Of a stretch of 64,000 bases of DNA, positions 1-40,261 are shown piece after piece. The position numbers and the translations under genes are program-made. Position 1 is the stretch's first letter. Every line of letters starts with the position of its first letter. The notes beneath the pieces were generated by a model. The model saw only the letters and a list, made by a program, of their open reading frames with translations, was not told the DNA's origin and searched no databases. The stretch comes from Botryllus schlosseri (Eukaryota), in contig CM119373.1 in the NCBI GenBank assembly GCA_051294905.1, positions 4,218,001 through 4,282,000 on the forward strand, read 5' to 3'.

Positions 1-1900
1 ATTTCGTCAGACATTTCATGATGTAACACCTTTAAAACCAACGCAGTTCTATACAGACTTTTGGCTAAATCTGTTTTTCCGTAGCGTAGCACGTACCTAT
101 ACATAGTCAACTTTAATAACGGATTTAGCATGTTAATAATCGACTTAGTTTTAAATAAAATACGGAATATAAACTAATCGAAAAATTCGGTAACCAATTT
201 CGCGTAGGCTATGCATGCATACAAATGAGGAAAGTTACATCAACGCGTGTTAAAGTAGCTGTATCGAGTTATCGAATGATTTTCTCCTTACATCAAAACA
301 ACTAGAATGTATAACTAAATTAAAAAACGTATCTAAATGAGCTCCAGGGCATTGTGATTATGCTGCATGCCAAATTTCATCACACATTTCATGATGGAAC
401 AACTTTAAAACTAACGCAGTTCTATAGCAACTTTTGCCTAAATCTGTTTTCGGTAGCGTGTACATATACATAGTCAGATTTAATAACAGAATTATCATGC
501 TAATATGTGACTCCTCACCTTGAAACTTGGTACGTAGTTGTAGGACATTGTGATTATGCAGCATACCAAATTTCTTCACGCATTTCATAATGGAACAACT
601 TTAAAACTAACGCGGTTCTACATCGACTTTTTGCGTACATCTGTTTTGCGTGGGGGCGTATAGCACGTACCTATACATAGTCAACTTTAACAACGGAATT
701 ACCATGCTTAACATTGAATCCCAACTCGAAACTTGATACGTAGTTGTAGGACATTCTGGCAATGCACCATGCTAAATTTCATCACACATCTAATGATGGA
801 ACACCTTTAAAACTAACGCAGTCGAATACCGACTTTTACGCATATCTGTTTTGCGTGAACATAGCATATACCTATACATAGTCAATTTTAATAGCAGAAT
901 TACCGTGTTAAACATTGAATTCCCACCTTGAAAGTTGGTACGCGGTTATAGGAGATTATAACAATGCACCATACCAAATCCCATCACACATTTCATGATG
1001 GAACAACTTTATAACTAACGCGGCTCTACATCGACTTTTTGCGTACATCTGTTTTGTGGGAGCGTATAGCACGTAGCCTACCCATACATAACCATCTTTA
1101 ATAACGGAATTACCATGCTTAACATTGAATCCCAACTCGATACTTGATACGTAGTTATAGGACATTATGGCAATTCACCATGCTAAATTTCATCACACAT
1201 CTAATGATGGAACACCTTTGAAACTATCGCAGTCGAATACCAACTTTTACGCATATCTGTTTTTCGTGAACATAGCATATACCCATACATAGTCAATTTT
1301 AATAACAGAATTAGCATGCTAAACATTAAATTCTCACCTTGAACGTTGATACGTGGTTGTAGGACATAATAACAATGCACCATACCAAATTTCATCAGAC
1401 ATTTCATGATGTAACACCTTTAAAACCAACGCAGTTCTATACAGACTTTTGGCTAAATCTGTTTTTCCGTAGCGTAGCACGTACCTATACATAGTCAACT
1501 TTAATAACGGATTTAGCATGTTAATAATCGACTCCCCACCTTGAAACTCGGTACGCAGTTGTAAGACATTATGACAATGCACCATGTCAAATTTTGTTAC
1601 GCATTTCATGATTGAACAACTTTAAAACTAACGCAGTTCCATACCGACTTTTGCGAGTGCGTAGCACGTACCTATAAGCATACTCAACTTTCATAGCGGA
1701 ATTACCGAGCTAAACATTGAATGCGCAACTTGAAGATTGGTTCACAGGTGTAGGGCAGTATGACAATGGAACACATCAAATTTCATCACACATTTCATGA
1801 TGGAACACCTTTAAAACTAACGCAGTTCTATACCAACTTCGCGTGAATCTGTTTGCGGGAGCGTAGCACGTACCTATGCGTGATCAACTTTAGTGATGGA
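1..1900 (-). repeat. Mirror copy of the same ~200-bp satellite array on the left palindrome arm
   Basis: Reverse complement of ~4690-6588, including the HOR junction (cgacttagttttaaataaaatacgg near 141). Confidence 0.95.
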
Positions 1901-1979
1901 ATTACATATGTAATTAAGTTTCAACACTTTTACAATGATTCGTCTTGCTTCCTATAACACCCCACTCGAGAAAATGCGT

Positions 1980-3265
1980 CGTAGGATATAGATGAAACTA
2001 GCACCACTCATCAAGACCGCTGAAAACAGTACATTTCAACATTTAGTAGCAGTAAATTTCTAGTAAAGTACAAGACGTGATGATTTCCGAGTGAGTTAAA
2101 AAGTAAGTATTGCAGGTATAGTTTACCTGAAAACCGAATACTCTGAAATAGAAGTAGATGCAGTGTAAATAGTTAATCACTTGATTAAGTTTAGTGCAAG
2201 CAGATAAAACCTATACTTGAGTAGTACAAAATGCACGAGTACTTCGCTATCGCCTCCCTCCACGTAATAAGTGTCTACGGTTTAAGACTGCTTTTACCGA
2301 TACTCGTCGGTTTCAGTTTTAGATAGAATTCGGAAACCAAATAATTTCATAAACATAAGCTAATTTAATGAATTTACTCGAATGTACTATGCCGCGCTGA
2401 TAAGATTAATTATAATATACTTATCATGTTACAGCGATTTTTCTAGCGTAGAAATCTTTAAAATGTAGTAAGCAGACCAAATGAAGATATTCGTTGAGCT
2501 GAATAAACATAAAAAATACTCTAGACTACTTTATCGGTACTTTACAGTTACAGTTTTAGATAAAATTTGTCCCTTTCACCTATAATTACAACTCCTCGCT
2601 ATCTAAACATGTTTAGAATATATTATTTGCGATGATACGAACCCGTGAAGTACTCAAGTTGCTTTTCGTAGGATATAGATGAAACTGACAACACTCACCA
2701 AGACCAGTGATCCACTGAAAAAAGTACATTGTAGCAGTAAAGTCCTACTAAAGTACAAGAAGTAATGATATCCCAGTTAGTTAAAAAGTAAGTATTGAGG
2801 TATAGTTTGCTCGAAAAAGCGAAAAACTCTGAAATAGAAGTAGATGCAGTGTAAATAGGTAATCACTTCATTAAGTATAGCGCAAGCAGGCCAAACCTAT
2901 ACTTAAGTACTGCAAATGTACAAGTACTTCGCTATGTTCTCCCTCCACGTAAAAAGTGACTAGGTTTTAGAGTACTTTATCGGTACTCGACAGTTTCAGT
3001 GTTAGATAAAATTTGGTAAGACTTTAAATTTTAAAGTAGTTTGAGCTTACGTTTGTATCACCCTGACAAGTAACATTATCAGACATGAAAATGATACTAT
3101 CACCGAATATAGAAGTTAACACGCGTCAATGTGCTTCGGAATTCACGAGAAATTGCTTACTAAGAGAAGTATATTGTTGTATACACAATAGTGGAGAGAA
3201 TATTTAAAATGTAGTAAGCAGGCCGATGGGTATTCGTTTAGTTGTATAGACATAAAAAACATTCC
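1980..3265 (+). repeat. Older ~690-bp direct duplication inside the palindrome arm (mirrored at ~3325-4610)
   Basis: cgtaggatatagatgaaact...ctctgaaatagaagtagatgcagtgtaaatag starts at ~1980 and again at ~2667. taaaatgtagtaagcag...cataaaaaa occurs at ~2459 and ~3205. The copies are clearly diverged. Confidence 0.85.
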
Positions 3266-4689
3266 CGCGCGCGTCTTAGTATTAGGTGGTAGGGTTAGGA
3301 AGTGTTTTGTTTAAGAGCGCGCGGGAATGTTTTTTATGTCTATACAACTAAACGAATACCCATCGGCCTGCTTACTACATTTTAAATATTCTCTCCACTA
3401 TTGTGTATACAACAATATACTTCTCTTAGTAAGCAATTTCTCGTGAATTCCGAAGCACATTGACGCGTGTTAACTTCTATATTCGGTGATAGTATCATTT
3501 TCATGTCTGATAATGTTACTTGTCAGGGTGATACAAACGTAAGCTCAAACTACTTTAAAATTTAAAGTCTTACCAAATTTTATCTAACACTGAAACTGTC
3601 GAGTACCGATAAAGTACTCTAAAACCTAGTCACTTTTTACGTGGAGGGAGAACATAGCGAAGTACTTGTACATTTGCAGTACTTAAGTATAGGTTTGGCC
3701 TGCTTGCGCTATACTTAATGAAGTGATTACCTATTTACACTGCATCTACTTCTATTTCAGAGTTTTTCGCTTTTTCGAGCAAACTATACCTCAATACTTA
3801 CTTTTTAACTAACTGGGATATCATTACTTCTTGTACTTTAGTAGGACTTTACTGCTACAATGTACTTTTTTCAGTGGATCACTGGTCTTGGTGAGTGTTG
3901 TCAGTTTCATCTATATCCTACGAAAAGCAACTTGAGTACTTCACGGGTTCGTATCATCGCAAATAATATATTCTAAACATGTTTAGATAGCGAGGAGTTG
4001 TAATTATAGGTGAAAGGGACAAATTTTATCTAAAACTGTAACTGTAAAGTACCGATAAAGTAGTCTAGAGTATTTTTTATGTTTATTCAGCTCAACGAAT
4101 ATCTTCATTTGGTCTGCTTACTACATTTTAAAGATTTCTACGCTAGAAAAATCGCTGTAACATGATAAGTATATTATAATTAATCTTATCAGCGCGGCAT
4201 AGTACATTCGAGTAAATTCATTAAATTAGCTTATGTTTATGAAATTATTTGGTTTCCGAATTCTATCTAAAACTGAAACCGACGAGTATCGGTAAAAGCA
4301 GTCTTAAACCGTAGACACTTATTACGTGGAGGGAGGCGATAGCGAAGTACTCGTGCATTTTGTACTACTCAAGTATAGGTTTTATCTGCTTGCACTAAAC
4401 TTAATCAAGTGATTAACTATTTACACTGCATCTACTTCTATTTCAGAGTATTCGGTTTTCAGGTAAACTATACCTGCAATACTTACTTTTTAACTCACTC
4501 GGAAATCATCACGTCTTGTACTTTACTAGAAATTTACTGCTACTAAATGTTGAAATGTACTGTTTTCAGCGGTCTTGATGAGTGGTGCTAGTTTCATCTA
4601 TATCCTACGACGCATTTTCTCGAGTGGGGTGTTATAGGAAGCAAGACGAATCATTGTAAAAGTGTTGAAACTTAATTACATATGTAATT

Positions 4690-7600
4690 CCATCACTAAA
4701 GTTGATCACGCATAGGTACGTGCTACGCTCCCGCAAACAGATTCACGCGAAGTTGGTATAGAACTGCGTTAGTTTTAAAGGTGTTCCATCATGAAATGTG
4801 TGATGAAATTTGATGTGTTCCATTGTCATACTGCCCTACACCTGTGAACCAATCTTCAAGTTGCGCATTCAATGTTTAGCTCGGTAATTCCGCTATGAAA
4901 GTTGAGTATGCATATAGGTACGTGCTACGCACTCGCAAAAGTCGGTATGGAACTGCGTTAGTTTTAAAGTTGTTCAATCATGAAATGCGTAACAAAATTT
5001 GACATGGTGCATTGTCATAATGTCTTACAACTGCGTACCGAGTTTCAAGGTGGGGAGTCGATTATTAACATGCTAAATCCGTTATTAAAGTTGACTATGT
5101 ATAGGTACGTGCTACGCTACGGAAAAACAGATTTAGCCAAAAGTCTGTATAGAACTGCGTTGGTTTTAAAGGTGTTACATCATGAAATGTCTGACGAAAT
5201 TTGGTATGGTGCATTGTTATTATGTCCTACAACCACGTATCAACGTTCAAGGTGAGAATTTAATGTTTAGCATGCTAATTCTGTTATTAAAATTGACTAT
5301 GTATGGGTATATGCTATGTTCACGAAAAACAGATATGCGTAAAAGTTGGTATTCGACTGCGATAGTTTCAAAGGTGTTCCATCATTAGATGTGTGATGAA
5401 ATTTAGCATGGTGAATTGCCATAATGTCCTATAACTACGTATCAAGTATCGAGTTGGGATTCAATGTTAAGCATGGTAATTCCGTTATTAAAGATGGTTA
5501 TGTATGGGTAGGCTACGTGCTATACGCTCCCACAAAACAGATGTACGCAAAAAGTCGATGTAGAGCCGCGTTAGTTATAAAGTTGTTCCATCATGAAATG
5601 TGTGATGGGATTTGGTATGGTGCATTGTTATAATCTCCTATAACCGCGTACCAACTTTCAAGGTGGGAATTCAATGTTTAACACGGTAATTCTGCTATTA
5701 AAATTGACTATGTATAGGTATATGCTATGTTCACGCAAAACAGATATGCGTAAAAGTCGGTATTCGACTGCGTTAGTTTTAAAGGTGTTCCATCATTAGA
5801 TGTGTGATGAAATTTAGCATGGTGCATTGCCATAATGTCCTACAACTACGTATCAAGTTTCGAGTTGGGATTCAATGTTAAGCATGGTAATTCCGTTGTT
5901 AAAGTTGACTATGTATAGGTACGTGCTATACGCCCCCACGCAAAACAGATGTACGCAAAAAGTCGATGTAGAACCGCGTTAGTTTTAAAGTTGTTCCATT
6001 ATGAAATGCGTGAAGAAATTTGGTATGCTGCATAATCACAATGTCCTACAACTACGTACCAAGTTTCAAGGTGAGGAGTCACATATTAGCATGATAATTC
6101 TGTTATTAAATCTGACTATGTATATGTACACGCTACCGAAAACAGATTTAGGCAAAAGTTGCTATAGAACTGCGTTAGTTTTAAAGTTGTTCCATCATGA
6201 AATGTGTGATGAAATTTGGTATGCAGCATAATCACAATGCCCTGGAGCTCATTTAGATACGTTTTTTAATTTAGTTATACATTCTAGTTGTTTTGATGTA
6301 AGGAGAAAATCATTCGATAACTCGATACAGCTACTTTAACACGCGTTGATGTAACTTTCCTCATTTGTATGCATGCATAGCCTACGCGAAATTGGTTACC
6401 GAATTTTTCGATTAGTTTATATTCCGTATTTTATTTAAAACTAAGTCGATTATTAACATGCTAAATCCGTTATTAAAGTTGACTATGTATAGGTACGTGC
6501 TACGCTACGGAAAAACAGATTTAGCCAAAAGTCTGTATAGAACTGCGTTGGTTTTAAAGGTGTTACATCATGAAATGTCTGACGAAATTTGGTATGGTGC
6601 ATTGTTATTATGTCCCACAACCGCGTTTCAACGTTCAAGGTGAGAATTTAATGTTTAGCATGCTAATTCTGTTATTAAAATTGACTATGTATGGGTATAT
6701 GCTATGTTCACGAAAAACAGATATGCGTAAAAGTTGGTATTCGACTGCGATAGTTTCAAAGGTGTTCCATCATTAGATGTGTGATGAAATTTAGCATGGT
6801 GAATTGCCATAATGTTCTATAACTACGTATCAAGTTTCGAGTTGGGATTCAATGTTAAGCATGGTAATTCCGTTATTAAAGTTGGCTATGTATGGGTAGG
6901 CTACGTGCTATACGCTCCCACAAAACAGATGTACGCAAAAAGTCGATGTAGAGCCGCGTTAGTTTTAAAGTTGTTCCATCATGAAATGTGTGATGGGATT
7001 TGGTATGGTGCATTGTTATAATCTCCTATAACCGCGTACCCACTTTCAAGGTGGGAATTCAATGTTTAACACGGTAATTCTGCTATTAAAATTGACTATG
7101 TATAGGTATATGCTATGTTCACGCAAAACAGATATGCGTAAAAGTCGGTATTCGACTGCGTTAGTTTTAAAGGTGTTCCATCATTAGATGTGTGATGAAA
7201 TTTAGCATGGTGCATTACCATAATGTCCTACAACTACGTATCAAGTTTCGAGTTGGGATTCAATGTTAAGCATGGTAATTCCGTTGTTAAAGTTGACTAT
7301 GTATAGGTACGTGCTATACGCCCCCCACGCAAAACAGATGTACGCAAAAAGTCGATGTAGAACCGCGTTAGTTTTAAAGTTGTTCCATTATGAAATGCGT
7401 GAGGAAATTTGGTATGCTGCATAATCACAATGTCCTACAACTACGTACCAAGTTTCAAGGTGAGGAGTCACATATTAGCATGATAATTCTGTTATTAAAT
7501 CTGACTATGTATATGTACACGCTACCGAAAACAGATTTAGGCAAAAGTTGCTATAGAACTGCGTTAGTTTTAAAGTTGTTCCATCATGAAATGTGTGATG

Positions 7601-7830
7601 AAATTTGGTATGCAGCATAATCACAATGCCCTGGAGCTCATTTAGATACGTTTTTTAATTTAGTTATACATTCTAGTTGTTTTGATGTAAGGAGAAAATC
7701 ATTCGATAACTCGATACAGCTACTTTAACACGCGTTGATGTAACTTTCCTCATTTGTATGCATGCATAGCCTACGCGAAATTGGTTACCGAATTTTTCGA
7801 TTAGTTTATATTCCGTATTTTATTTAAAAC
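4690..7830 (+). repeat. Satellite array: ~190-210 bp monomers, 411-bp dimers, 1388-bp higher-order unit in two copies (~5057-6444, ~6445-7830)
   Basis: A catcatgaaatgtgtgatgaaattt-like motif recurs at ~4787, 4976, 5178, 5380, 5589, 5791, 5996 and 6193. Near-identical ORFs are offset by 1388-1389 bp (5182/6570, 5424/6812, 6001/7390). Confidence 0.95.
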
Positions 7831-10800
7831 TGAAACTGTTAAGTATTACTTAAAGTGTTATAAAATGTGAAAAAGTATACGTAGAATTATTATTATGTCA
7901 TGAACAAGTAGTTTACAAATTCATACGATTTTTCTTGTTGCGTTCCGGGATATAATGTAATTTTTCGCTCTTTTTTATTTTTTATTTTTTCAATAAAATT
8001 AGTATTCATTTTACAAAAAACGTCGTGTAAAGATAAAGTACTTGAACACTAAACCCGTAACACAGTGGCGCAATAGCCCAGATCAGTCCAAGCTTAGGAG
8101 AGTAGATGACTTCTGCAGTGCCATTCAGTGCTCCACCGCCGATCCAAGATGCTGCATATATGTCAAACATACACGCGGTCAATATCAGTCTATTATACTG
8201 AGTTTTGGCATCGGTTTCAATAACCTGTCATTGTGCAAATTCCTAATGGTCTTAGTATGAACCGACATGCATTCGACTTATGGAAAAATGTGTCGCACAC
8301 TATTTCACCGAGATTACAACCCTTTCACGGTTCACAACTTGATATATCAACTTCACAGGGTAGTTCGGATTCTCAGGTAGACTTGAATCGTGATCCGGAT
8401 CTCGGAATATAGTAAAATCAGGGTATGTAGTTTAATTACTCACTCACTACTCTATATGTTGGTGGTGGTCATACCCTGCAAACTTTTTTTTTTTTGCTGC
8501 GAACGTAGTGTTTCACCTTACATCAGTTGGTTCAATGTATGTACCGGGTTGTGAAAACTGTCGCTGTTTTGACTATGTGTCACAATCAATACTAAATACG
8601 AGAATTCGTTACTCGTCGAAACGCCGCAGTCAGACATCGTTAACAGCGATTCCATGTATGGCAATCTTGAGTTCAATTGCGGTTTGTGATGTTAACCAAG
8701 CGGCTGTGTTTCTGCGGTGTGAAGACTGAATTCATGTTGTTTCCCCGCAGGAGTGCGATGTCTATTTCACACCTAGAGCAATTATAAAACGCATCTTCGA
8801 AACTTAATGGAAAATGCGTGAGCTCGACTAACTTTTTACGTAGTTCGAAATCGCTACTTCTATGCATTAATTCAAAGTATTTGTCAGTCATCGTAACACC
8901 GCTCATATGGCGCGCTATCTATTTATTTCAGAGATAACGAATTACTCCTGCTTTTATCAGAGGATACTTTTCTAGGATTTGCCTACTAACAGTACTTAGT
9001 TTAGATTAATAAAAGTATAGTGATTGAAAATAGATCACTGGAATATAGTTTACAGAAAACTCCACAATTCTATGTGACGTCCTTGCATACCAACAACCTT
9101 CGAACTATTCGCCGCCTCATAAACACTTGAGTAGGCCTACATCTGATGCGTGAGGGGAAAACATAGTTAAATTTTCATATGCATTTAGTTTCCAACTCTG
9201 AAAGCAAGCTTAGTCTATGATCATTCGCGTACCATTAGTATTCATTTTACAAAAACGTCGTGTAAAGGTAAAGTACTTGTACATTTCGGAGTACTCAAGT
9301 ATCAGTTTTGTCAGCTTATTATATGCTCAGTATATTATACGTCACAAATTGTGGAGCATTTATGTGGGTGCTCCGGGGTGCTCTTCATTGAGTGTTCGTG
9401 TTGGGTGATAAGTTTAATTTGCAAAATTAGCGTGTTCAAATCAGGTCTGTCGCCAACATAGTGATGTCGCATTAGCCCTAAATACACATAATAGAATATA
9501 AAGGAAAAGTATCATCTAACGTATAATGAATGTTATCTATTTCTCGGAAGCAAGTTATTATCAAAACATAGTGGTCAAAATTATCGCAGAGCAATATCGA
9601 TTTGCGTAAATTCCGTTATGCGTCTGACTACGTTACTAGGGATTATGTAGTTAGTTAAGGAATTAGGAGTCCTATCTTCCCAATCGGTATGGAACAACAT
9701 CAAAATCATCACAAAGCAATATCGACAAAATCTGCTTACTTTTATAACTTTATATTTTGTGAAGTAGAGAGTAGTTTAAGGTTATGTTTGTCTAACCTTG
9801 GCGAGTGCTATTGTCACACTCGATCACCATCTTCAAATCATGGCTATCTCAATGATGTTGACTAAATTTTCGGCTTCGGAACGTGTTAATTAGACCTAAT
9901 CGTTTTAACGCTGGGGTTCGCGTACAGGCATCGATAGAGTTTGTATAAATAAAGCCCTGCGAATCGCACGCCTACGGCTATAGTTCATTCGATTATTTTC
10001 ACCTTGGGATTCGCGTATATGCTACTAAGCTGTTACGACTTTAGAAAATTCTACAAGACTATTCGGAACGCGCACATGCGAGTGATTTGTTTCCGTAGCT
10101 CCGAACTGGAGAATCGCTTGCCTGCGTCTAATGAAAATAAGTCGTAAAATGTGGAGGCTGCAGAGACAGTAACTTGTATACATAAAATCAAGTTTAAAAA
10201 TATGGACGGATGAGTTATCTCTGAGCAATAGAGTAATATAACCGCCTATAGTTTAGTGGGGTATTGCTATAATGTATATCCAAACAATCGTTGCAGACTC
10301 TGAATGTTACCTAGGTCCTTATCACAAAAAATCATGCATCAGAAGCGTAGGGGTTCATATTATCAAGTCGCAGCGCTCAAAATCACATTTTATATTAAGT
10401 AATTAGTGATGATGTGTAGAATTTTGATATTAATAATATTATCCGGAGAATATAACCTTACATAGACATCATAGTTTTCGCATTTATGTATAATCTGAAT
10501 AGGAATTTAAATACATAGTCCTAAATACACATAATAGAAAATCTGTCGATTCTAGCCAAGGTAAGTTTTGACGTAGCAATCTTAAGTCGTAAAATGTGGA
10601 AACTGCAGAAACCGTAACTTGTACACATAAAATCAAGTTTAAAAAATATGGACGGATGATATTAGTCCTAAATACACATAATACAATATCTGAGAAAAGT
10701 ATCAAGATGCGGAAATCAATGCAGCGATGATATAGCAATGGGTGGATGATGTGGCAATAGGCGTGCTATAGGTGCGGCAATGGGCGGATGATGTGGCAAT

Positions 10801-11781
10801 GTAGGCGTGGCAATTAAGGCGACGTGGCCTTCTGGGATTGGTCTGCGTATATTTGACCAAACCTCACTACTCTCATGTCCAATTTCCCCGTCAATCTGTG
10901 GTTCAAAACTCACACAAATATTCGCTACAATAGCCAACAGCAGAGTGTCCAATTATCCATTCTTTTCCCACATATTATCATATCTCATGAAGTTACAATG
11001 CGTGCTGGAGTGTGGCATATCGTAACGTCCCTCCAAGACAAGCTATATATTTTTGAATTACAATGATGGTTATGTCAAATAGATATTGCGTGATGATCAT
11101 CCGACCAAAGGGTGGAAAATTATTTCCAAGTTTAACAAATACTTAACGATATTCATATGACTTCTACATCCTCAGAGTCTACGATTTTAAAACTCTATTG
11201 GTTGTTTACGGAGTGGAAGTTACGATAAGCAAATTTAATTTGTAACGCGACAGCCGTCGAATAGAATTCGTTTTCATGATATTTAGATTGAAAAAATTAT
11301 CATTAATATTACTTTCATTCATATGCGCGTTACCCAACTTTGTTTTCTTCAAATAGATGTTGACCCGAATGGGGGAGTCATGAATCACAATTTGAGATAT
11401 GAACATTTGAACACAAACAGTGAGCGATTTTATGAGATATGCAATCAATTAGACAAATCGAAACTAGGATTATTGTCATCGTTCTGACAAAACTGTCAAA
11501 GTATAGAAAAAGTATGGAAGTATGGAAAAACGTTCCGTACAATACAAATTTCCATAGCATACCATACTTGGACTTATCCATATTCCATACCGAAATGCCG
11601 TTCCATACCATACCATACTTCCATACCATTCCGTACCATGCCCTGTAGACAAGTACTGTCCCAACATAACAATGCATTCGACTCAGTCGGAATATTAATC
11701 CGCAGGAATAGTCAAAATCATGTGCTGAGATGCGATTCGAAACCCGTTCTCTCCGTCATATATTGAAGATGACCACTTAAG

Positions 11782-12298
11782 CAGGGGTGGGCGAACTACG
11801 GCCCGCAACACCGTTCTGTGCGGCCCGCGAGAGTCTAAAGAAACTTGTTTAAAATATTGATCAAAAGTGTACTAAAATCGAATTATTGCAGGGACTTGAT
11901 CAAACTTTTTGTTAGTATATTTCACCATGATAATTCTAGGGCAGTGGTTCGCAAACTGGGGGCGTGAAAGCGTCTGAAGGGAGGCGCGAAGCTGAGCCCA
12001 AATGAAACAATTTTTCGCGCTCCGCGCGATTCATATTCATTTCATAATTATCGCTATATATTTAGTAACCTTCGTAACCTTCTACGCCATCAAACTATCT
12101 GTTGGGTTGCATTTACGACAAGACCATAAGGGTGGCGCACCATCATAGGGGGGTCGTGTCTTCAAAAGTTTCGGAGCCACTCTTCTAAGGTAAATACTTC
12201 CTGTTTTATTTGTGTCATCCCAGTTTTATAAAGTGCGGCCCGCAAATGGATTCAGATGTTGAATGCAGCCCGCGAGCTCAAAAGTTTGCCCACCCCTG
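11782..12298. mobile_element. Composite hAT-type MITE (caggggtgggc TIR) containing a nested MITE at 11942-12182
   Basis: TIRs caggggtgggcgaact / agtttgcccacccctg. The inner element cagtggttcgcaaa...gagccactc is flanked by ttctaggg/ttctaagg. Homologous to 37949-39045 and 62032-63178 in opposite orientation. Confidence 0.85.
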
Positions 12299-12448
12299 AC
12301 TTAAACGCTCACAGCAACGTTACTACCATGATTTAATTTTATGTTCTGGAAAGTGAGTAAAGGTACTCATTAGATTTCGTGTTTAACTATTTTTGAACTA
12401 TCTTAAACTATTCCTGAATGTAGAAGGGTATTTTGATAGATTATAGGT

Positions 12449-13148
12449 CAGTGCTGGCCAACCTTTTCGGTCAAAGGGCAACATTCAATTGCCGAAGAAT
12501 TGCGCGGTTCACTAGCCGCGCCAAGCGTGAAAATTTTCGGAGTTTATAGCTCAATAATATTATTACTTGAGTATATTGCGGGTCTGCTGCGTATCGCTAT
12601 GGGCTCAGTTTGCAAGGAGGGGGCTATTCGGCGCCTGGAGATATCGATATCAAAAGCTTCGGCCAACATGCGTCAATCATTTTGAGCCCAGGTTTCATCG
12701 TTGACGGTCTTTCTGCGGACGCAAACAAAAGGTCGCATTCTGGACGACACATTCTCTTGTAATTGCGAATATAGTTTGACTCAATCTGGTACATCAGGCG
12801 TTCTTTCATTCTCAGGAGGGGTAACAATATTAAAAGCAAAAATCGAGTGACAACATATAGCGGGAAGCGGGAAGAAATTTTTTACTTTAGCTTAATCTAC
12901 CGCAGAATATTCTGCTTTATTGTAATGTACGAAGCCCTACCAAAAATATGACTGACCCATGGATCTGCCAATGCGTTAGAACTGATATTTTAGTCGTTAC
13001 ATCCCAAGTATTGCGGCCAGACTAGTCAAATTTGGGTTGGCCTTGCAAGTTCACATTCTCGGCAATCCATTTTGATAATATTACTCATTTCGAAAATTAG
13101 CCTACCTCGCGGGTAACTCGAAACCTTGTCGCGGGTTGGCCGCCCCTG
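12449..13148. mobile_element. Non-autonomous hAT-type element
   Basis: TIRs cagtgctggccaacc / ggttggccgcccctg; 8-bp TSD ttataggt/tcataggt. Confidence 0.8.
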
Positions 13149-13498
13149 TCATAGGTAAAATCGCCTAGTATGGCGTCATATACCTATACCAGCAAATATG
13201 GTATCGCCAAGTACGGTAGACGAATCTTACACCAATAAAGATTGTTCCTTATTAGCACGGTTTGGCAGTAGCACAAATTTCCAATCCACCCTCGTAAATT
13301 CTAAATCGAGATTTGAATCCGACTTGCGATACCGTGGTAATTTCATATCCCGAATTGATGAAATTTAATTTCTCGTATCACAGTCGGACTAAGTCTCTAC
13401 TAAAGTACTGAGGCCGGCTCCTATTGCCGACCATACATGAACGAAGCTGTGATTACCACTCTCGCTTAAAATCGCGACTCCCAATACATGGTATATAT

Positions 13499-14427
13499 CA
13501 GTGGTCGGGAACCTTTGTTGTCCGAAGAGCCATATTTGCCCTATTTTTCAATCTCAACTCCCAAAGTGCCATACTTGCCAATCAACCGTTACGTCACAAT
13601 TGAAAATCATGACGTCATGATAGCACTAATTCGAACTCACTACATGGGATTCCTCGTGTGCGCCTTATTTTCATGTAAAAGCTGGTATTTATTGTACGAA
13701 AATAAAGCTCGCAACGACAGATAAGGCATAAAACGGGCCAGGCCTCGCCATTGATAACGCAATTCATCGTAACTAGCGTAGAATTTATTATAACTGATAT
13801 CAATCGAATGTGACTGTCACTGATTCTGAAAATCTAAATACTTATCGACTTCTCAATTCTCAAAGTATTCGGCGGTAACATAACGTTGCGCTACACGCCT
13901 ACATTTTATCGCCGGTACTACACAGATCTATACTTACCAATGAAAAATGTGATTATGAATAGCTATGACGTTGTTTGATATTCGAGTTTGTGACTGTGAC
14001 ATCCACAGCAGTTAATTTCGCGCCGTAGATCAGGAAAACGATGCGTATTTGTAAACTGCGTTTTGAAATGGGCGTCGTCATGTATGCTATGCTCTTTGAT
14101 TAGTCAACGTATGGCACAGTTCAAGGTTTCGAGTCGGGTGAATAGAATTCGCGAGTGATATTGACCGCCGGCATGACAGTAACTTAAATTTGATGATTTT
14201 GCAAAGAGAGGGTCCGAGCCCCTAAACCTGAAGACGACATTGTCTTTACCTCTCCAAGATATGTTTATACTGCCACGAGAATAATTATATTGGTCATGAT
14301 GAAAATTTACCAACAAATCGCTGCAATAATGATCAATTCAGTACAAAAATAAATATTTGTCAAAGAGCCATATTTTATACCCAAAAAAGCCATACATGGC
14401 TCGCGAGCCATAGGTTCCAGACCACTG
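13499..14427. mobile_element. Non-autonomous hAT-type element
   Basis: TIRs cagtggtcgggaacct / aggttccagaccactg; perfect 8-bp TSD gtatatat. Confidence 0.88.
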
Positions 14428-15399
14428 GTATATATACTCAGAAATTACTGGAATGTCGGAAAAATTTGGCTGGAACTCAGTCTCTCGAATCCATTAGTTC
14501 TAACTGCTAGTACAACTGCTCTCTGCAGCTAAACTGAAATGAGCTATGAAACGTTATCTCAGTGTCACAGGTACCGATCTTTCAAATTATCAGCTATCAG
14601 TCACACATATTATGCTTCTTGACCATAAAAGATTCTAAATCTGGTGACGCACGTATATATTTAAAATATGTAATATTGCTGTTTAGTTTGGCGTGCATCA
14701 ACCAATCACTGTAGTATTCGAGTCGTCATTTCTTCGCAATTAACTCTAAAACTGGTCCTAATGGCGCCACGATAACAGCCACGCATATTGTGACGTATCA
14801 AGTAGAAAATTTTTCAGACAAAACCTTTCATACGGAAAAAATTTTATTGACAAATTCACGGAAAATCAGACTTGTGAAACCGATCTCGGTAAATTAGTAA
14901 ATAATGCCAAATAGTATAGTTAAAATCGGAATGGATCGTGATAGAAAATTGCAATGCTACAGAAGCATCAATGTCATAAGGAGACCACCAATAACACCCC
15001 TGTTGTTCTTGAAACTGAATAAAGTTCATGAATAAGATCAATTACCTCGACAGTTTGTCTATAATTTGTTGAAGAGATATTGCTCTAGTTTTTTTGTTAA
15101 TTATAAGTAAAGCGTTTTTGTTTGACCTGAAAAAAGGAAGATTTCGACCAGAAAAATTGAAATTCAACATTTTTTGAGAATAAAAACTTAATGTTGACAT
15201 AAGTGTGCCCTTATGTAAATCGATTAGGTGTTTCCGCACATAATGTTAGAATTGAAAGTGAAAAGTAAAAAGAAAACATAAAATGACAATAAAAGATGAA
15301 AATGTAATGTGACGGCATGCGAGGTCTTTATATCAGATCCTTGTCCAGTATCCTCGATAGCTGACTAAATCACATTGCAGCAGTAAGAATACTTTATGG

Positions 15400-16196
15400 C
15401 AGTGGTTCTCAACCATTGGTCCACGGACCTCTCGGTGTCCGTGGAACATTTTCAGGGGGTCCGCAAACACTCCAAATTTCCCAAAATGGTTGTTAAACCT
15501 AATTTGTATTTTTCTAAATTAGAGAAATCACGAGGTAGTATCGCTCCGTAACTGCTAAAACTTCGAGACCCACATAAACAGAATGGCCATCTGAGATGAA
15601 ATATTCTACTGTGCAAACTTAGTGTAATTTCGAATAGCCTAAACATATCGCTGTTTCGAAAGGCTTTGTTGGGTTGGAAAAATCCACTTTTTACTGTGAT
15701 ATAGGCCTACATAACCGATATTCCGGAATAACTTCAAGATGAGCTGCTAGACGTTAGGCTGGACGTTATATGTTCATTAAAAATATGTTTCCTAATTATG
15801 GAGCCATAACTGTTGCGACCTGCGATCATCCCCGAAGGTGTCGTCGGAAGCGGTAAGCGTTATTATTACATTCGCCATCATCTTTGTGGAAATGGATGTT
15901 CGGCAATCCTTCATATCAAATAGAAGGCGTGGATTTTTGAGACTTGACCGTGTATTTCAAGAAATGCAGCTACAAAATTCCCTTTGAAATAATAAAAGTC
16001 GTCGAAATGTCTACATAAATAGCGTGATGGTAATTTCAAGAATAGTCATTTTATCGCTGTTCATCACTGCCTTACAGTTGAGATTCACATAAGACAGATA
16101 ACGGTTGTACGATAATGGAGCTAAATTTGTACAAAGATTTAGGGGGTCCACGGGGGTCCGTATCGGTGCAAAAGGGGTCCGCGAAGACAACCGCTG
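15400..16196 (+). mobile_element. hAT (Charlie-like) deletion derivative with a decayed transposase C-terminal fragment
   Basis: cagtggttctcaacc...caaccgctg with perfect TSD ctttatgg. ~15880-15925 reads LCGNGCSAILHIK, resembling the hAT motif LCExGFSxL..IK. Shares sequence with 26470-26640 (inverted). Confidence 0.8.
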
Positions 16197-16455
16197 CTTT
16201 ATGGTATACCTGTAGTAAACAAGGTAGTTGGCCGATATATATTATAGGATTAGCCTTGCTGGCTACGTAACCTGGAAGTCCAATTCAAGGTGACAGAGTC
16301 AACTACAACATGTATTATCATTATACAAGGGAAATCATATATGATGAAATTGTCACTGAACGGATTTCGGAAAGCCCTGCTTCAAAATCCGATTCTTAGC
16401 ATTGTTCCGCTGGTTTACGATTAACTTCCTTTTACGCGTACATTGCTTCATTGTT

Positions 16456-17082
16456 TTAATAAGTTGATAAGTTGCCAATTACGATTGAATTCGACTTGTT
16501 GAAAATGACAATCGAATCGTTGGCGCAACTGTAGCTTGATCGATGTAAGATATCAATTTCGGAGGAATTAAGAGCTCTGTTCCAAAGCCGAAATCCTTCT
16601 ATGTCACCCCGAAAACCTTGATGAGGATTTTTGGGTTTAATGGACCAGTTCGTGCCTTTATCCTGATTCAAATTCTGTCCCAAGATAAGATCTCCGCCTC
16701 CAGGTATTACATGCTGGGAAATGTTGACGCTGTTTACGGTAGCGTTGATGTACACGCTCATGAATGTGTCTGATTTCACGACGCACTAATGTGTGCGATA
16801 CCGTGAGCAGTAATTACTGAAACTTCCTTGCACGGCTACGAGACGCGAGTTTACACTGATTTTAGTTCCGCTTTGCGGTGCCAATACGACGAAGGTGTTG
16901 CAGTTCTTCGGTCGGACTTGTAATGCTCACAATCGCTTGCTCTTTTGCGAATGATTGATTCGACTTTCGCACCCAGACACATGTCGTGAAGGATGTAATA
17001 GCTGGCCCTGGCAATGTGCCGTTACATTTTACGTAATGCATATGTTCCTCGTACGGAAAGCTAAAGCCAGATTCGTCGCACG
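16456..17082 (-). pseudogene. Terminal exon encoding a pentraxin (CRP/PTX-like) domain, disrupted by a frameshift (~16905) and an in-frame TAG (16786-16788)
   Basis: Acceptor ttccttcctggtttcag. Translation: CDESGFSFP...SFTTCVWVR...AIVS; H*CVV (pentraxin HxCxTW position); VIPGGGDLILGQ; FRGDIEGFRLWNRALNSSEI. The two ORF halves differ in frame. Confidence 0.85.
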
Positions 17083-17607
17083 CTGAAACCAGGAAGGAAA
17101 TGTCTATCGATTCACTCATCTCATGTCACGGTATAGCCGAAGAAAAATATTCCAACCCGGTAATATTTATTTCTCACTCGGCATTGGCATGACCTCTTCC
17201 CCTATGAAAATTATAAGCCCTATGGAATGAGAAAGGATTTTGATATCTATTAAATAGGGCTTAAACCTTGTGTGTCAACAATTTAGAAATTTTCAGCGCC
17301 AATACAATGTACTGGACCGCCCGCCTGATACTGGAACTGGAATTATCATGAAATTCGTGTATTCTTGGCGATGACCTAATATGATGTATTTACAGGTTCA
17401 GTTCAGCGCTGCCCCAAAGAGATCATTGGTCACCGGTCTGCAAATATACCAATAGATTAATAACTCAAGTCAGATTTCGGCATTTAGCCATCGACTTTTC
17501 ATATACCTTATTTTAATATAGTAATTTAGCTAAATATAATTCAACGGGTAATAATATAAAGCTATAGCTTGATGATAATAGCGGATAAACGGCGAAGCTA
17601 TTCTTAC

Positions 17608-17688
17608 TTGAGTGTTTAGTTTCCAGACCATTCGTTGTCATGGCGATATCAGGCATGTCGAAAGCGATCTTGTCCAGTTGCTTTGTTG
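17608..17688 (-). CDS. Candidate internal exon of the pentraxin gene (TKQLDKIAFDMPDIAMTTNGLETKHS)
   Basis: ag...gtaaga boundaries, 81 bp, phase 1 to phase 1, in frame with the exons on both sides. Confidence 0.5.
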
Positions 17689-17868
17689 CTTGAAAATCGC
17701 AATATAAAATCGAAATTTCAATTATCTAATTCAACATCAACAGTTATATTATTTATGCTACGTATGCCTGCGACTATGCAGCTTCTTGATGAAATTTGTA
17801 CAATTTTCTGGCATTCTGCCGTAAAATCAAAGCTTCTAGTGAAATAAAGTACTCTATCGATGCTCTAC

Positions 17869-17944
17869 CTGACGGTCGCTGACTTGCTTTGTTGGCAACC
17901 CGTTTCTTCAAGTCGGCCAGGATATCATTAATTCTACTGTCACC
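17869..17944 (-). CDS. Candidate internal exon of the pentraxin gene (GDSRINDILADLKKRVANKASQRPS), coiled-coil-like
   Basis: Acceptor gctttttcag, donor gtagag, 76 bp, phase 0 to phase 1. Confidence 0.55.
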
Positions 17945-18298
17945 CTGAAAAAGCACATTTAATATTTCGATTGCCCTCCTTTCGATGTAAGCTACTCATA
18001 TACGATAGACGCTGTGCAGCTATAAGATTCAAAACTACCTATACCTAAATGTATATACCATGGGTGGGCAAAGTGCGGCTTTTTCGGCCTCGATTGTGGC
18101 TCTTAAATGATCACACATGCGCTTCACGATTTTGCTAGAGATGATCACCCTAATCTTAAATTGATGCATTTTATCGCGTATAAACAATATGTGTATTGTT
18201 TTCGTGATGATTTACGCAGAACTCGTAAAATCTTTGGGATGGTGGCATTACATGGTTAGAAATGAGCAATTGAACTCTCGAATCGAGTTCATATAAAC

Positions 18299-20246
18299 CA
18301 GTGGTTCTTAACCTTTTTTCATCCAGTGCCCCCTTTCGAAAATTTTCGAGCTCCAGCGCCCCCCACTTCATATTGTAGGGACTGTAATAATGACAATGGG
18401 TGAGAGGGAGGGCCGTAACAGCACTTCGTCAGCCTCCCTAAAAACGATTGTCCTAGGCACCCATAGCGTGATAAACCAAACTCATGAGGCTTCGCCCCCC
18501 AAGAACCCCGTCGCGTGATTTCGAGGGTCATCATCTTTACGTGGCCTGGTCGACCTAGGAGCCAATATTTTCTATAACGCACGGATGAAATAGGTTTTAA
18601 ATGCATATATATGTCTGTATAAACTTTTTATCCTCCCAGCCCACGTAATCAGATTTACCAGTAGCGCTGAATGAACTGTTGTATTAGAAAATGAAGGCCA
18701 CGCAATAAATAATTGAACATATTCGGGCGTACCCGTTGGTACAATTAAACTGTTACATGTTATTTTGTTACCTCTCGTCAGCTATAGGTAAAAGATATTG
18801 AAACGCATAAACGTCTTGAACTAAAGTAAGCACACGATTCACGATTGGTATTTTGTCACTGGCAAATCATTTTTTCTGATGGATGTAATTTGTCCTATTG
18901 GGTGCAGATTGCGACGACATGATAATTCGGCACGAGCGATTTAGCACCTATGGAGAACGAGACTTATATACATCGAAGTTTACGCTCACCATAAGGGCAA
19001 TGCTCTTCGGCTAAGGTTTTCTCGCTGGAGATCTTTTTGACACACTTCTCGGAGTCCCATATTCACCGGAACTTCATGTCTTCGTGCATCGAGGCGTGGT
19101 AATGCCCGGCGCCGAAATGCCTCTTTCTATTTGCTATAACTATGCTTATTCTTCCGTGGGGGAGTCGTCAAAACATGATGTTTAAATTATTTTCATTCCC
19201 GAAATAATTTAGGGCACCCTTCGAGCTAACCGATTGGGGGTTTGGGTTGCAGCAGTTTTGGTCTTGGTAAGATGTCAAAGTTCAGTCGGTCTTTTTGGGA
19301 CTTTGGTATTGGAAATATTCCGCGCTCTAATCGCGCTCGAGGACCAGTCGTCTATAATAAACCGTATAATAATTATGTGTGGTGTATTCAGGGTCAAATC
19401 CAGGTTGTTATAACAACAATCGGGTACGGTCTCATACCCTGTGGCTCGAACCCTCCCGAATTAACATCGGCGATTGGCAATACGGGGGAAATTAAGGGTA
19501 TTGGATTTTATCTTAGTGCTTTGTGTAACTATAACTAAGTCAACTAAGACTGGGATGCATATATCTGCTCTCAATGAATTTAGTACTGTATACCCAGTTA
19601 TTAATTTTACCATGAATGTATTCCAAACAAAGCAACTCATATTATGTAACGTTCATGTGAGGTTGTGAACAACAACACGAGATAGTATCATCCTTTATGA
19701 TACGATGAAGAAATATTCTGATGATTTAATTTTGTAGCTCTCAAACCTATTTCATGTACAAGGGGCTGTCACTATCAAAAGTGACATACAGTGCCTCCTT
19801 CTTCGATTTTCACACGCTGTGCGCTACGGGATATAATACCTAATGCGAAACATTTTGTTGAAAATAACCCTAGCAGGCGTTACGGCAGTGTTTTAACATA
19901 ACGGGAATTTGGCGATCTAAAAGTACGCGCAATTCGTTTTATAATAATTATTATAACCCATTATAGTCCACTACATTTATGAAAACATATGTAGCAAACA
20001 TCGTCACGTAGCGCAACCACAAATTTCGGTATTTGACATGTTTTGTGGAACGTTAAATTGTTCTGAATACTCATTAAGGATATGTCATACTACCACATCA
20101 TCTACGGCGGAGCCATTTTTCTTCAGCGCCTCCTTATCGCCCCCCTGAGCCTAGCACCCCCCATATCGCCCCCTGAGCGTTTCCGCCCCCTTCAAAATCG
20201 CCAGCGCCCCTTGTGGGGGCGCTGGTGGCAAGGTTAAAAACCACTG
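18299..20246. mobile_element. hAT-type element containing a nested element at ~18408-19266
   Basis: TIRs cagtggttcttaacctt / aaggttaaaaaccactg; perfect TSD atataaac. The inner element is homologous to 51781-53046 (gggccgtaacagcacttcgtcag start) with TSD gtgagagg/gtaagatg. Confidence 0.88.
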
Positions 20247-21872
20247 ATATAAACGTTTCACCGGCTACAATGGATGTCTGGTCATCAATCAATCAATAAT
20301 AAATCATTGTGTTCAACAATCGACTTGATTATTAATTACGCCAGCGCAGGTCACAATCACTTCCCGACTAGCAATGGTGGATACAGCTATTCCGTTTGTA
20401 TTGTAAAGGGCTAATTCCATTATAATTTAACAGGGGCTGTAATGCATACCCTCAGAATTGTCCAATATTTACAAATGTTATTCTTTTTTGAATTCCAAGT
20501 TTATTAAAAAAAAAAATTGAAAAATGTTCAGCGGTTCAAAAGATATTGCGATTTAAAATCCTCTCGTCACTAGGTGGCGCTACTTTCAAAAATCTTTGAA
20601 ATCGATATTTTCCGCTCAAATGATGGTAGAGAACCAATCAAAATGTCCAATTAACCAATTCTGGGGCCAAGGAATTCAATAAAACCAACTGTTTCGCCCT
20701 AAAATCAATGAAAAAAAGTTACGGATGAAAGAAAAAATGGTGGGACGGGCTTGAAAATGTCTGTAGGATACGGCCTACACAAAAAAAATTATTGTGAAAT
20801 GTGCTTTTAAGGAGTATGGTTGATAAAAAGCTTGATTTTAAATTTCCCATTTATTCCACCGTGAAATATGCATTACATAAAAATTTCATGGTCCCGACCC
20901 ATATCCCTGCTCACCGTAAATACTATTATCACCAGTCAGATATATCAATCCAATGTAAATGTTTCTTTTAGTCTACTACGTTTGGGATACAACAATATCT
21001 TTTGATTATATCACAGACCGGAGGTCACGAATTAACAACATACACTAAAGGAAAACAGGATACCAGACGTTATAATTTTGAATTACGTGCCCCCCAGCTC
21101 TACAGGTAAATCTGAACATCGGGGTAGAGAAAGGATTAAAAATTAATAATAATAAAATGCGATTACCAATATTATTGACGAGACTCAAACTTCAACTTGA
21201 AAATATCACCCTATGAGGGCCAAAGACCAACGTTTGGACTGGGGGACGAGTTGCTGTTTTGGCCCTGAGTCTAGCTACAACCTCCGCTAACATGATATAT
21301 ATTATATAAGCCCATGGCTATGACGGCAGGTCCCAATGTTGAGTAAAGAATTGTGAAATGAGGATTGGCGCCCGTTTCAAGAAGAGTCATATGAGAATAA
21401 GATTTTCATTCATAAAATTCTGCATTCAACTTAATACAGATAATGCACTGCAAGCTGCCGTTACGAGAAACGGCAAAAACGGCTCGGTTATGATGCAGCT
21501 GTTGATTTTCAATGCTTCGTTGTGGAAACCGTAATATTTTATTTGACGAGTACAAAATTTCAAATCTTTGTTCTGTGTACGTACGTATACTAGATAGGCT
21601 TACCGCTCGCCAAGCAGCATCGGTCAAACTGCGTTTAACTATATTACTATAAGCATAACCAAACATCAATACACAAGTTACTATTTTAAACTAGGCAGAG
21701 TGGTGATTAATTATCCTGCTGCGAGGTACTGGCGTGTGAAACGTTTTGATAACCTGATATACAGTACGGCGGGTGTTCTTACGATCACACTAATGTACGA
21801 ACATCGGATATATCTATTTGCTGCGGATACTTCTTACGCAATGACTAGCAAAGCTAATAGGCTACTTCTGAC

Positions 21873-23132
21873 TAGGGTTAGTTCGGATATCAATAATTTT
21901 CACTATCCGGATAACGGATATATCCGGATATTTTGGAATTTATCTAACCGGTTAACCGGATAATAACTGCTAAGTGAGACAATCGATTTCATTACGTCTG
22001 CATGTAAAACGGATCGCAAAATCATTACACAGTGTTATTGTAGAGTACCTACCTATGCGCGCAGTATGAGTGAATACGAGAAAAACCACGCAAATTGAAT
22101 GTTCACTGCTTCTGCAATGCCCTCTTTATAAAGCACAGATGCATCAATTGTGGGATCCTGTAGCCGGGACCGGAATTTTGTAACAAAGAGTCCACGTTCA
22201 TTGAATGCTTTTTCAGCTTCCACAGAAGTGGGCTGAATAGAAAGCAGCGCTTCGTAGAGAGTCAAAAGGTTGGCAGGTCGTACGCCGGAAACTTCAACGG
22301 CTTTACATCCTTTTGACCATCCTTATGTATAGGTTTGGAGTACTAGAAGGACGACTAGCTGATACTGGAATTGATGCCGACATGATACCTCGCTCTAATT
22401 CACGTGATCAGGCACGCAGCCAGCCGAAAATGTAGGGGGATTGAAATAAACTCAGGGGGTTTCGATTTATTTTTTTCGAATTAATCATCAGTGGAAATCA
22501 ATTACGCTTGCACGCACGCACATTTTTGCGAACATTCGATGTCATTCAGTTTCGCGGTGTCACTCGCAGAATCACTAATTAGAATACATTTAACGAAATA
22601 TCGTCAACAAGCCATCGAGAGATAGGAGCCAATGCATGCTGGGTCCGAGATGGTTAGGCCAGCGATTATATCGTTCGTAGGCCTATTGCAGATGCGATTG
22701 TGTAGGTCAACGATAATATCGTGAGCACCAAGCCAATGAAGATGCAATTGTGCAGGCCAGCGATGGAATATAGTGTGTACACTGCACATGGCCTATTGCA
22801 GATGCGATTCTTCAATCCAGTGGAACTATCGGCTTGTTGAAGACGCGTTAAATCAGGCCAGAGACGATAGCCGAGCGCGCGGCAATCAATGACCTAATTT
22901 AACGATCTTCTCAGCAGGAGATCGCGTCACATTACATTGTGCAATGTGTACAGACGCATCTCGCTAATTGGCAACACGCTTCTCGTTAATCGGCCGCGCC
23001 AACACTGAATACGACTTATTGAAGCTTACTAAAACGTGTAAAATGCATTTGCAACGATTCTTTTTTATCCGGTTAACCGGCAGAAAAATATCCGGATATC
23101 AGATAGTGAAAATACCTGCGGTTGGAACTCTA
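21873..23132 (-). mobile_element. Decayed hAT element with transposase dimerisation-domain remnant (22053-22270)
   Basis: Minus-strand peptide LLSIQPTSVEAEKAF...FVTKFRSRLQDPTID matches the hAT C-terminal motif. Inverted subterminal motifs (atccggata, taaccggtta) at both ends. No clear TSD. Confidence 0.72.
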
Positions 23133-24041
23133 CCGCATCCTCTTCAGTACAATCCTTAAAATATGGGGGCGTGTCAGATCATGAAAATTTCGAAACTGGG
23201 ACGCTGAAAGAAAAAAGGTTAAAAACCACCGGTCTAGTGGATTCGTTTATTGACTACATTCATTTTACTCAGGAGCTTGTTTAGACTCAAGTACTTAATT
23301 TTACTCTTTCAAGTTTTTAACGTAGTTTCATGATATTTTCGACCACGTATATTAGTGAAATTATTTTATCGACAGGTCGAAATAGTCACTTTATTACCGC
23401 TACTAAATATATATTTTGAAAACAGCAAGAATTTGTAGTTTCATCCGTCCGTTTGCAAAAATAGCGTAACCTACCTTGCAATTTCATATATTGCCACACC
23501 TTGGATCACTACTGAAGGTAAGTAACGTCTCACGCAAATCTCCTTCTTTGAAGGAATAATTTTCATATTTATTTTTCCAATTTCACTTGAAGTAGTTCAG
23601 TCATTCATAGCGGTCGTGATTTCTATTTGACTTTACAAACAATGATTGCTTTGACCACGTATCGCTGACACATGCATGACTTCGTACAAGTGTTGCCGAG
23701 CATGCCAATTATCTCCCTCATTTAGGTTTATACCATTCGCATCATCTTTTGGAAGCCTTTGCCCCTGATTTCAACTATACTATACCTAAACGGCGACCAA
23801 GTCCAAAACACCTTGGTTTTGGATCTGTTTTCGTGCAGGTTCCGCAGCGGATAGGTGTTTTGGAATACCTTACCTTCCAACCTATGAAGGTAAATCTTAC
23901 ACAGGACTCTTGTACAGAATGGCTCCTGAATGCCATCCTTCCGGTTTCGTGTGTACCGAAATGGCGCGTGATCGTCGCGCCTTTTCCTGCCCCGAGTTTT
24001 ATTTGGTGTCATATCAGGTACCACAGACAGGCCGTACATAC

Positions 24042-24133
24042 GTTTTCTTGTACTGCACTGACAACCTCGAAAGGATTCTTCAAATTTGAATATTGCACAT
24101 TTGGATATTGTCCTGGATTACATAAAGTTACGC
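24042..24133 (-). CDS. Candidate upstream exon of the pentraxin gene (VTLCNPGQYPNVQYSNLKNPFEVVSAVQEN)
   Basis: Acceptor tgttacag, donor gtatgt, 92 bp, phase 1 to phase 0, compatible with the 17944 exon. Splice-signal evidence only. Confidence 0.4.
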
Positions 24134-24516
24134 CTGTAACATGTCTGGAACATTGTCGAAAGAGAGTACTAGTAAATAAGCCTAATCGATCTGATACTTG
24201 ATTTTTTTTTGATTCGTCATGCGTAGGGTGGCGGACGTCACGAAAATTCAATTGTGATGTCATAGTGAATTGAAATTGACAATTTAAAATATAGGGTAAA
24301 TATGGCTCCTTTGACGAAATATCTGTTCTATTGCTGTTGAACCGGCCATTTCGAGGGTTCTAGCCATCGCATATTGATATACGTCGGCTGTATCGGGTGG
24401 TAGTTGTCCGTAGGCTCATACAACATGTTTTTTTGGAAGTATTTACACAATTATGGCATAATTTTACAACTTGAAAAAAAAAACAGATTTTTTTTCAAAA
24501 TGCCTTTGTTTAAAAC

Positions 24517-24853
24517 AGTGGTTCCGAACTTGGGCGATATCGCCCCCAGGGGGCTATTAGGCGGCCTAGGGGACGAAATTAACGAAAAATGTAATTGGGG
24601 GGCAATGGCGCCTTAAAACGGTTAAATTTGAGTCAAGTCTGAGAAATGACCTTTTTTATATTTTTTAGTCCACTCACAAAATATAGCTGTAAAGGTGTAA
24701 TTTCGAGGTCGAGCCAAAATGTTGACCTTTTTTTTAGTCAACACGCTGGTGATTGTAGTTTGTATGCCCATTTTCGGTTCTCAATATTTTGGGGGCGATG
24801 ATCGGTGTGGAGCTTGAAAAGGGGGTAATGAGTCGAAAAAGGTTGGGAACATG
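24517..24853. mobile_element. Short hAT-type MITE
   Basis: cagtggttccgaactt ... aaggttgggaacatg termini with gggggcgat subterminal motifs; TSD degenerate. Confidence 0.65.
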
Positions 24854-24908
24854 TCTTAAACAAAGTGCTTTGGAACACGTTTGTTTTAAATGCAACCCTA
24901 GTTCTTAC

Positions 24909-24978
24909 ATCTAATTATTTTCAGAAAACCGATTGCTTCGGTAACAATACAACAACAAGGAAGGCAGTAACTCGTCAT
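24909..24978 (-). CDS. Possible first exon of the pentraxin gene (MTSYCLPCCCIVTEAIGFLKIIR)
   Basis: ATG at 24978, donor gtaaga, ends in phase 1 as the 24133 exon requires; only weakly signal-peptide-like. Confidence 0.25.
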
Positions 24979-25109
24979 TTAGGGTGTCTATGCGTCAAGT
25001 ATTCATCCAATATTCCCAAGGAAACGTATATGATTTCAATTCGCCTTTCGCGGCTACAGAGCATGTATTTCAAACCTATCTGCGTTACACATAAATATCT
25101 CACGTAACT

Positions 25110-37930: not shown

Positions 37931-37948
37931 GTATACATTGATATAGGC

Positions 37949-40145: not shown

Positions 40146-40261
40146 ATCGGTTCTTGCCCATATTTTGGTATATCGCTCATTCTAGTCCGTGACGCACCTG
40201 GCCTTACAGGCGAAAAGCGTCACTCATCTTTTCATCAATAATAATAATAATAATAATAATA

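Follow-up and report, generated by a model that had tools for sequence, protein, structure and literature searches.

A near-perfect palindrome with satellite-bearing arms in Botryllus schlosseri as the candidate centre of a proposed gene-less Maverick/Polinton dependant

We analysed a 64-kb stretch of the Botryllus schlosseri genome (64,000 nucleotides; GenBank assembly GCA_051294905.1, contig CM119373.1, positions 4,218,001 to 4,282,000 of the forward strand; hereafter the window, whose numbering is used throughout), which opens with a long inverted repeat that we interpret as the middle of a transposable element. In the assembled sequence, positions 1-6588 form a near-perfect palindrome, with a left arm at 1-3272 and a right arm at 3317-6588. 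A base-by-base mirror test at the offset i+j=6589 paired 3268 of the 3272 arm positions, compared with a background of 833-934 of about 3290 at 19 adjacent offsets. The four mismatches (369/6220, 756/5833, 1394/5195 and 1677/4912) are all substitutions, and the 3272 bp contain no indel, four matched runs of six A included. All four fall in the outer half of the arm; given p=0.07 for this placement, we claim no mismatch gradient. A first-pass annotation of this DNA had given arms of at least 3272 bp, a constant offset, four substitutions and a 44-bp spacer, all of which proved exact in the mirror test, and its palindrome of at least 6.6 kb is confirmed in the assembled sequence. The structure itself is larger than was noted there: the mirror stops at 6588 because the window begins at position 1, and arm-type sequence goes on far past 6588.

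The arms are modular (Table 1). Next to the spacer lie two copies each of two modules, u of about 355 bp (3570-3923 and 4253-4610; 81% alike, offset 683) and v of about 165 bp (3325-3490 and 4067-4235; offset about 742). The duplication of an inner 690-bp unit that had been proposed here is therefore present as a duplication, but it consists of two diverged modules and not of a single whole homologous unit. The satellite reported in the arms is borne out, with a period of 202 and 7.7 copies at 366-1905 in a 411-bp dimer structure; its monomers measure 189-209 bp and are 71-91% alike, and two pairs of alternate monomers reach 89-91%. The satellite is confined to an internal block, of 7.7 plus about 6 monomers, that non-satellite DNA borders at both ends, and we accordingly rejected the earlier suggestion that the palindrome flips the polarity of a satellite array.

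Part of the arm has been duplicated in tandem, and the junction of this duplication is also found in the left arm. The two arms differ at 4 of 3272 positions (0.12%) and the tandem copies at 12 of 1388 (0.86%; Fisher p=2.4e-4), and the difference persists inside the duplicated segment only (3 of 1387 against 12 of 1388, p=0.035). At all 11 substitutions between the tandem copies, the left arm carries the copy-1 allele. Because the arms are less diverged than the tandem copies, we conclude that the tandem duplication came first and that one arm was then copied from the other. This order fits recopying in a hairpin, a recent fold-back and a read artefact equally well. The polarisable arm differences (3 of 3) lie on the left arm, and two of the three assessable left-arm alleles also occur in other monomers, as either conversion or mis-polishing would produce.

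At the centre, folding pairs 3274-3278 with 3312-3316, and since these five extra base pairs follow a one-base bulge inside the spacer, the true loop is 33 nt long (3279-3311). A short pre-existing inverted repeat with a loop, which is the mark of fold-back-primed inverted duplication, is thus present, and fold-back priming, one of the origins that had been suggested for the palindrome, fits this anatomy. Two of three fold-back duplications in wild-type yeast formed at a 5-bp repeat whose copies a 35-bp spacer separates, close to the 5-bp repeat and 33-nt loop seen here, and the authors relate this to hairpins with long loops being cut less well by Mre11 (Al-Zain et al. 2023, PMC10622511). Those yeast events were one-off chromosome rearrangements, whereas the present structure seems to be bounded by a transposon end. 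The loop is C-free and contains four G-runs and a telomere-like stretch. However, the telomere-like heptamer occurs eight times in the window, with no hairpin at the other seven sites, and 33-mers without C are not rare either (132 of 63,967), so we claim no function for the loop sequence. No second copy of the palindrome centre exists within the window, and matches of a 17-base centre motif to 120 prokaryote loci, one match each among the 80 listed, are taken as chance.

Arm-like modules continue beyond the tandem duplicate, for which reason a terminus at 7831 was rejected. Positions 7817-7845 are similar to the inner arm, a 51-bp module lies at 7998-8048 and again at 9234-9283 (94%), and 9271-9317 resembles module u (80-83%); three more families of modules occupy 9471 to 10704, with copies at 9471-9514/10516-10545/10661-10704 and with 10138-10213 matching 10583-10659 (92%). 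Short same-strand dispersed repeats are present in each kilobase of 1-11,000 and absent over 11,001-25,000. The sequence ACTACT, the (ACT)2 end motif of Mavericks, lies 167 bases past the last dispersed module, with a chance of about 0.05 of falling within 170 bases by a post hoc estimate from its density in the window (18 in 64 kb). Of the longer motif CTCACTACT the window has two occurrences (at 8443 and 10863), both in the stretch of the proposed element, against 0.30 expected (2 of 100 shuffles; likewise post hoc). We rank 10871 above 8451 as the terminus because modules, the 51-bp one among them, go on past 8451. Mirroring 10871 predicts a 7555-bp arm and a whole-element palindrome of 15,154 bp with its left end 4.3 kb before the window, and mirroring 8451 instead would yield an element of 10,314 bp. 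Nesting of one element inside another may be an alternative arrangement behind the two end motifs. The segment 8049-9233, between the two copies of the 51-bp module, holds the second CTCACTACT and is possibly captured or nested DNA. On the minus strand, CATCATC occurs twice in 10716-10830, and several TGGCA half-sites lie there too; these may resemble adenovirus origin elements, a likeness noticed post hoc.

Coding capacity is slight. The stop-to-stop open reading frames (ORFs) of at least 60 aa in 3273-11000 number 25, the longest being 97 aa. A Pfam scan took 19 of these, the six satellite ORFs omitted being near-duplicates, and returned no match at the cut-off and two weak ones (E 0.046 and 0.034). 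Since none of the polymerase, integrase, ATPase, protease and capsid genes of Mavericks was recognised among these 19 of 25 ORFs, the element is not an autonomous member of the Maverick/Polinton group. Rfam yielded no family in the whole window. The 8451 motif, the satellite core and the 10871 end had no exact match in viral, metagenome and prokaryote collections, where this animal is not expected, and a BLAST search of 8049-10871 against phage records found no match. Part of 3240-6440 was found in 19 of the 24 sequencing runs listed (10 studies), 7 of the 19 being labelled metagenomes; among the runs listed, the share recovered was 0.90 in the best run, 0.66-0.71 in three runs of another study and 0.40-0.54 in the metagenome-labelled ones. 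This recovery may point to a high-copy repeat, and the shares bear on copy number only.

We propose, with a probability of roughly 0.6, that the palindrome is the centre of a gene-less, non-autonomous snap-back dependant of Mavericks/Polintons, about 15 kb long, which consists of one inverted repeat throughout and has Maverick-type termini. Such an element has likely been copied recently, and its copying and insertion are likely the work of an autonomous Maverick. The direct evidence comprises the mirror, the stem and loop, the arms made up of modules, the absence of recognisable genes, the (ACT)2 motif after the modules and the arms being closer to each other than the tandem copies are; from these we infer the rest. 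In an ancestor with a Maverick end, the 3' end would have folded back on the 5-bp stem and primed synthesis as far as the terminus, so that both ends became identical. A single strand of the product would fold into a hairpin whose open end could act as a duplex origin for a protein-primed polymerase given in trans. Copying around the loop would make the duplex complete again, and the arms would stay alike through copying or repair while the element is a hairpin. The integrase of the helper would then insert the element with a 6-bp duplication, and the 202-bp satellite and the other modules would be carried along, growing by tandem duplication. A panhandle model of Maverick replication has been published and restated for casposons (PMC4046053). 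A bolder form of our proposal is an integrated Maverick/Polinton snap-back satellite, that is, a gene-less 15-kb hairpin with two copies of a helper end, in which arm is recopied from arm at each replication, the G-rich 33-nt loop serves as a nuclease-resistant turn-around and satellite DNA is moved to new sites; we put this full combination at somewhat less than an even chance.

The Mavericks of vertebrates span 12.7-24.6 kb, with terminal inverted repeats (TIRs) of 46-1447 bp and 6-bp duplications, and (AGT)2//(ACT)2 is their commonest end motif (Barreat and Katzourakis 2021, PMC8097293). With Mavericks/Polintons (PMC8097293; Novick et al., PMC3014272), the present structure shares the (ACT)2 at the candidate right end, inverted ends and a predicted size, 15.15 kb, within the vertebrate range. 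It differs in carrying satellite in its arms, in the lack of any of the recognised Maverick genes named above and in that the inverted repeat is the predicted whole element, with no long unique core. The very large foldback element suggested in the first-pass annotation therefore stands as regards form, with long modular arms, tandem repeats and no genes, but the motif at 10866-10871 would point to Maverick/Polinton rather than to the FB or MULE type proposed there. Snap-back or self-complementary defective genomes of linear DNA viruses are whole-genome palindromes that carry the same end twice, turn in a hairpin at the centre and depend on a helper. In contrast to these, the structure described here is integrated in an animal chromosome, gene-less and satellite-carrying, and its replication and packaging are hypothetical. 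Non-autonomous Polintons are known from Repbase, and a foldback element of Ciona was reportedly described by Simmen and Bird in 2000. Self-complementary adeno-associated virus (scAAV) is mentioned as palindromic (PMC12870357). In the open literature, as covered by titles and the beginnings of abstracts and with subscription journals, Repbase reports and supplements outside its scope, our survey returned no whole-element palindromic Maverick dependant; the Polintons in passages of PMC6431247, PMC3014272 and bioRxiv 2024.01.15.575659 are ordinary ones or TIR remnants.

Several observations weigh against a Maverick-dependent element of this size. The arms flank a 44-nt spacer and, being 3272 bp or longer, far exceed the TIRs of vertebrate Mavericks (46-1447 bp; PMC8097293). 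ACTACT is common, with 18 occurrences in the window, a second candidate end lies at 8451, and the motif test was post hoc. Continuity of the putative outer arm is also incomplete: 8049-9233, a stretch of 1.2 kb inside it, is unlike anything else in the window, and no homology joins 9317 to 9471. Moreover, a profile of module u matches an unrelated AGTAC-rich element at 30119-30235 (E 4.8e-7) much as it matches 9270-9321 (E 3e-7), and the u link of 9270-9321 is therefore not specific. As for the sequencing runs, satellite words make up 55% and spacer-touching words 2.3% of the words in 3240-6440; run shares up to 0.55 may therefore reflect satellite only, and shares above 0.55 imply some inner-arm words. 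The best run (0.90) may be the assembly's own sample.

The most probable of the alternatives, itself unlikely, is a foldback transposon of the non-autonomous, cut-and-paste kind from another superfamily (FB/Tetris/Mutator-like), in which the TIRs became elongated, the middle was nearly lost and ACTACT stands where it does by chance, as its 18 occurrences in the window would allow. Long modular TIRs with internal tandem repeats and no ORF are indeed present, and foldbacks with satellite-bearing arms are already known. A close parallel is Tetris of Drosophila virilis (Dias et al. 2014, PMC4079207), which is likewise non-coding and whose long inverted arms are also built of modules, namely an outer domain, an internal block of tandem repeats of ~200-220 bp, variable through tandem duplication, and an inner domain. 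However, the TIRs of Tetris reach at most 1735 bp and flank a middle domain, with Mutator-like duplications of 8-10 bp, whereas here the end looks like that of a Maverick and the arms, which flank 44 nt, span several kilobases (at least 3272 bp, or 4515 bp if 7831 is taken as the arm end); the monomers are also less uniform (71-91% alike, against ~94% in Tetris; PMC4079207). That the repeat modules end just before the (ACT)2 motif also speaks against a foldback of this kind. A crude scan of 8049-11760 for other short end motifs gave six CACTA-type and three Mutator-like matches, which remain compatible with it, but no hAT-, piggyBac/Kolobok-, (CT)3- or T(GT)3-type end.

Two further explanations dispense with a mobile element. 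An immobile palindrome formed by a one-off chromosomal inverted duplication, through fold-back priming at a break in a repeat-rich region, would account for the stem and loop at the centre, for arms that are young relative to the tandem duplication and for a centre that is single-copy in the window. It would leave unexplained the end motif and the GC-rich subterminal repeats at the point where the modules stop, and it does not easily explain why runs labelled metagenomes contain part of the stretch; we regard it as quite improbable. An assembly artefact is unlikely as well, and we give equally little credence to its specific form, in which a chimera, from a folded-back read or from amplification, became fixed in the assembly although the genome has one arm only. 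A read fold-back would likewise put the tandem duplication in both arms, and mis-mapped polishing reads could cause both the one-sided placement of the polarisable arm differences and the left-arm alleles shared with other monomers. Yet all four differences are substitutions; not one indel occurs along the 3272 bp, the runs of six A included, whereas errors of long reads are mostly indels. Fold-back reads make up ~0.55-0.6% of nanopore genomic libraries and are virtually lacking from PacBio HiFi data (PMC12870357), figures that would speak for or against an artefact according to the sequencing platform.

If the Maverick-dependent reading is correct, the element bears on how Mavericks replicate. 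Replication through a single-stranded panhandle intermediate is a model, with no direct test in the passages of PMC4046053 covered, and whole-element palindromes with Maverick ends would be the expected residue of copy-back errors in such replication. The panhandle model could then be tested from sequence alone, by setting the divergence between arms against that between copies throughout the family. The element would also show how multi-kilobase palindromes with short spacers, which are thought to be unstable, persist in the germ line and move satellite DNA. In the bolder form of the proposal, it would be a transposon counterpart of the defective interfering genomes of viruses and a natural read-out of Maverick replication. 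Should the ends not be of Maverick type, it would be a large but familiar foldback transposon, and an artefact would matter for assembly quality only.

Table 1. Positions of the palindrome and of observed and predicted features of the element in the window
Feature	Position	Strand	Remarks
Visible left arm	1..3272	+	Mirror of 3317-6588; ~4.3 kb more predicted upstream of the window
Spacer	3273..3316	.	44 nt; one bulged base, 5-bp stem, 33-nt loop; closed by GC-rich arm end
Inner arm	3317..4683	+	Two diverged copies each of modules v and u
Satellite block 1	4684..6243	+	~202-bp monomers, 411-bp dimer structure; mirror 346-1905
199-bp non-satellite module	6244..6442	+	Mirror ~147-345; identical copy 7633-7831
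Tandem duplicate of 5056-6442	6444..7831	+	1388 bp, 99.1%; 11 substitutions, 1 indel
Second CTCACTACT motif	8443..8451	+	Alternative terminus (ACTACT 8446-8451), end of nested piece, or chance
Putative outer arm	7832..10715	+	Dispersed modules; no ORF >97 aa
GC-rich subterminal short repeats	10716..10830	+	24-nt unit, 3 copies; GC 0.49 vs 0.25-0.32 just before
Candidate right terminus	10863..10871	+	Ends in Maverick (ACT)2 motif, ACTACT 10866-10871
Predicted 6-bp target-site duplication CTCATG	10872..10877	+	Partner would fall outside the window

The window contains several other repeats. An older foldback element at 28142-32031 has arms of about 970 bp that are 78% alike and a Tol2-like hAT end; further Tol2-like ends lie inside it at ~30120-30237 and 30825-30880. 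A miniature inverted-repeat transposable element (MITE) is nested at 29139-29953; its TIRs are short, and it contains many TGACT/GAGTCA units. A hAT-like MITE with a 16-bp TIR lies at 11782-12298 and has relatives at 37942-39052 and 62025-63185. An ORF of 486 aa at 40193-41653 has a weak zf-RVT match (E 6.5e-4) under the cut-off, and by its motifs it looks like the 3' part of an R4/Dong-type retrotransposon without long terminal repeats. Three diverged copies (69-84%) at 18409-19063, 33212-34207 and 51781-52805 represent a dispersed repeat of at most 1 kb with an internal duplication.

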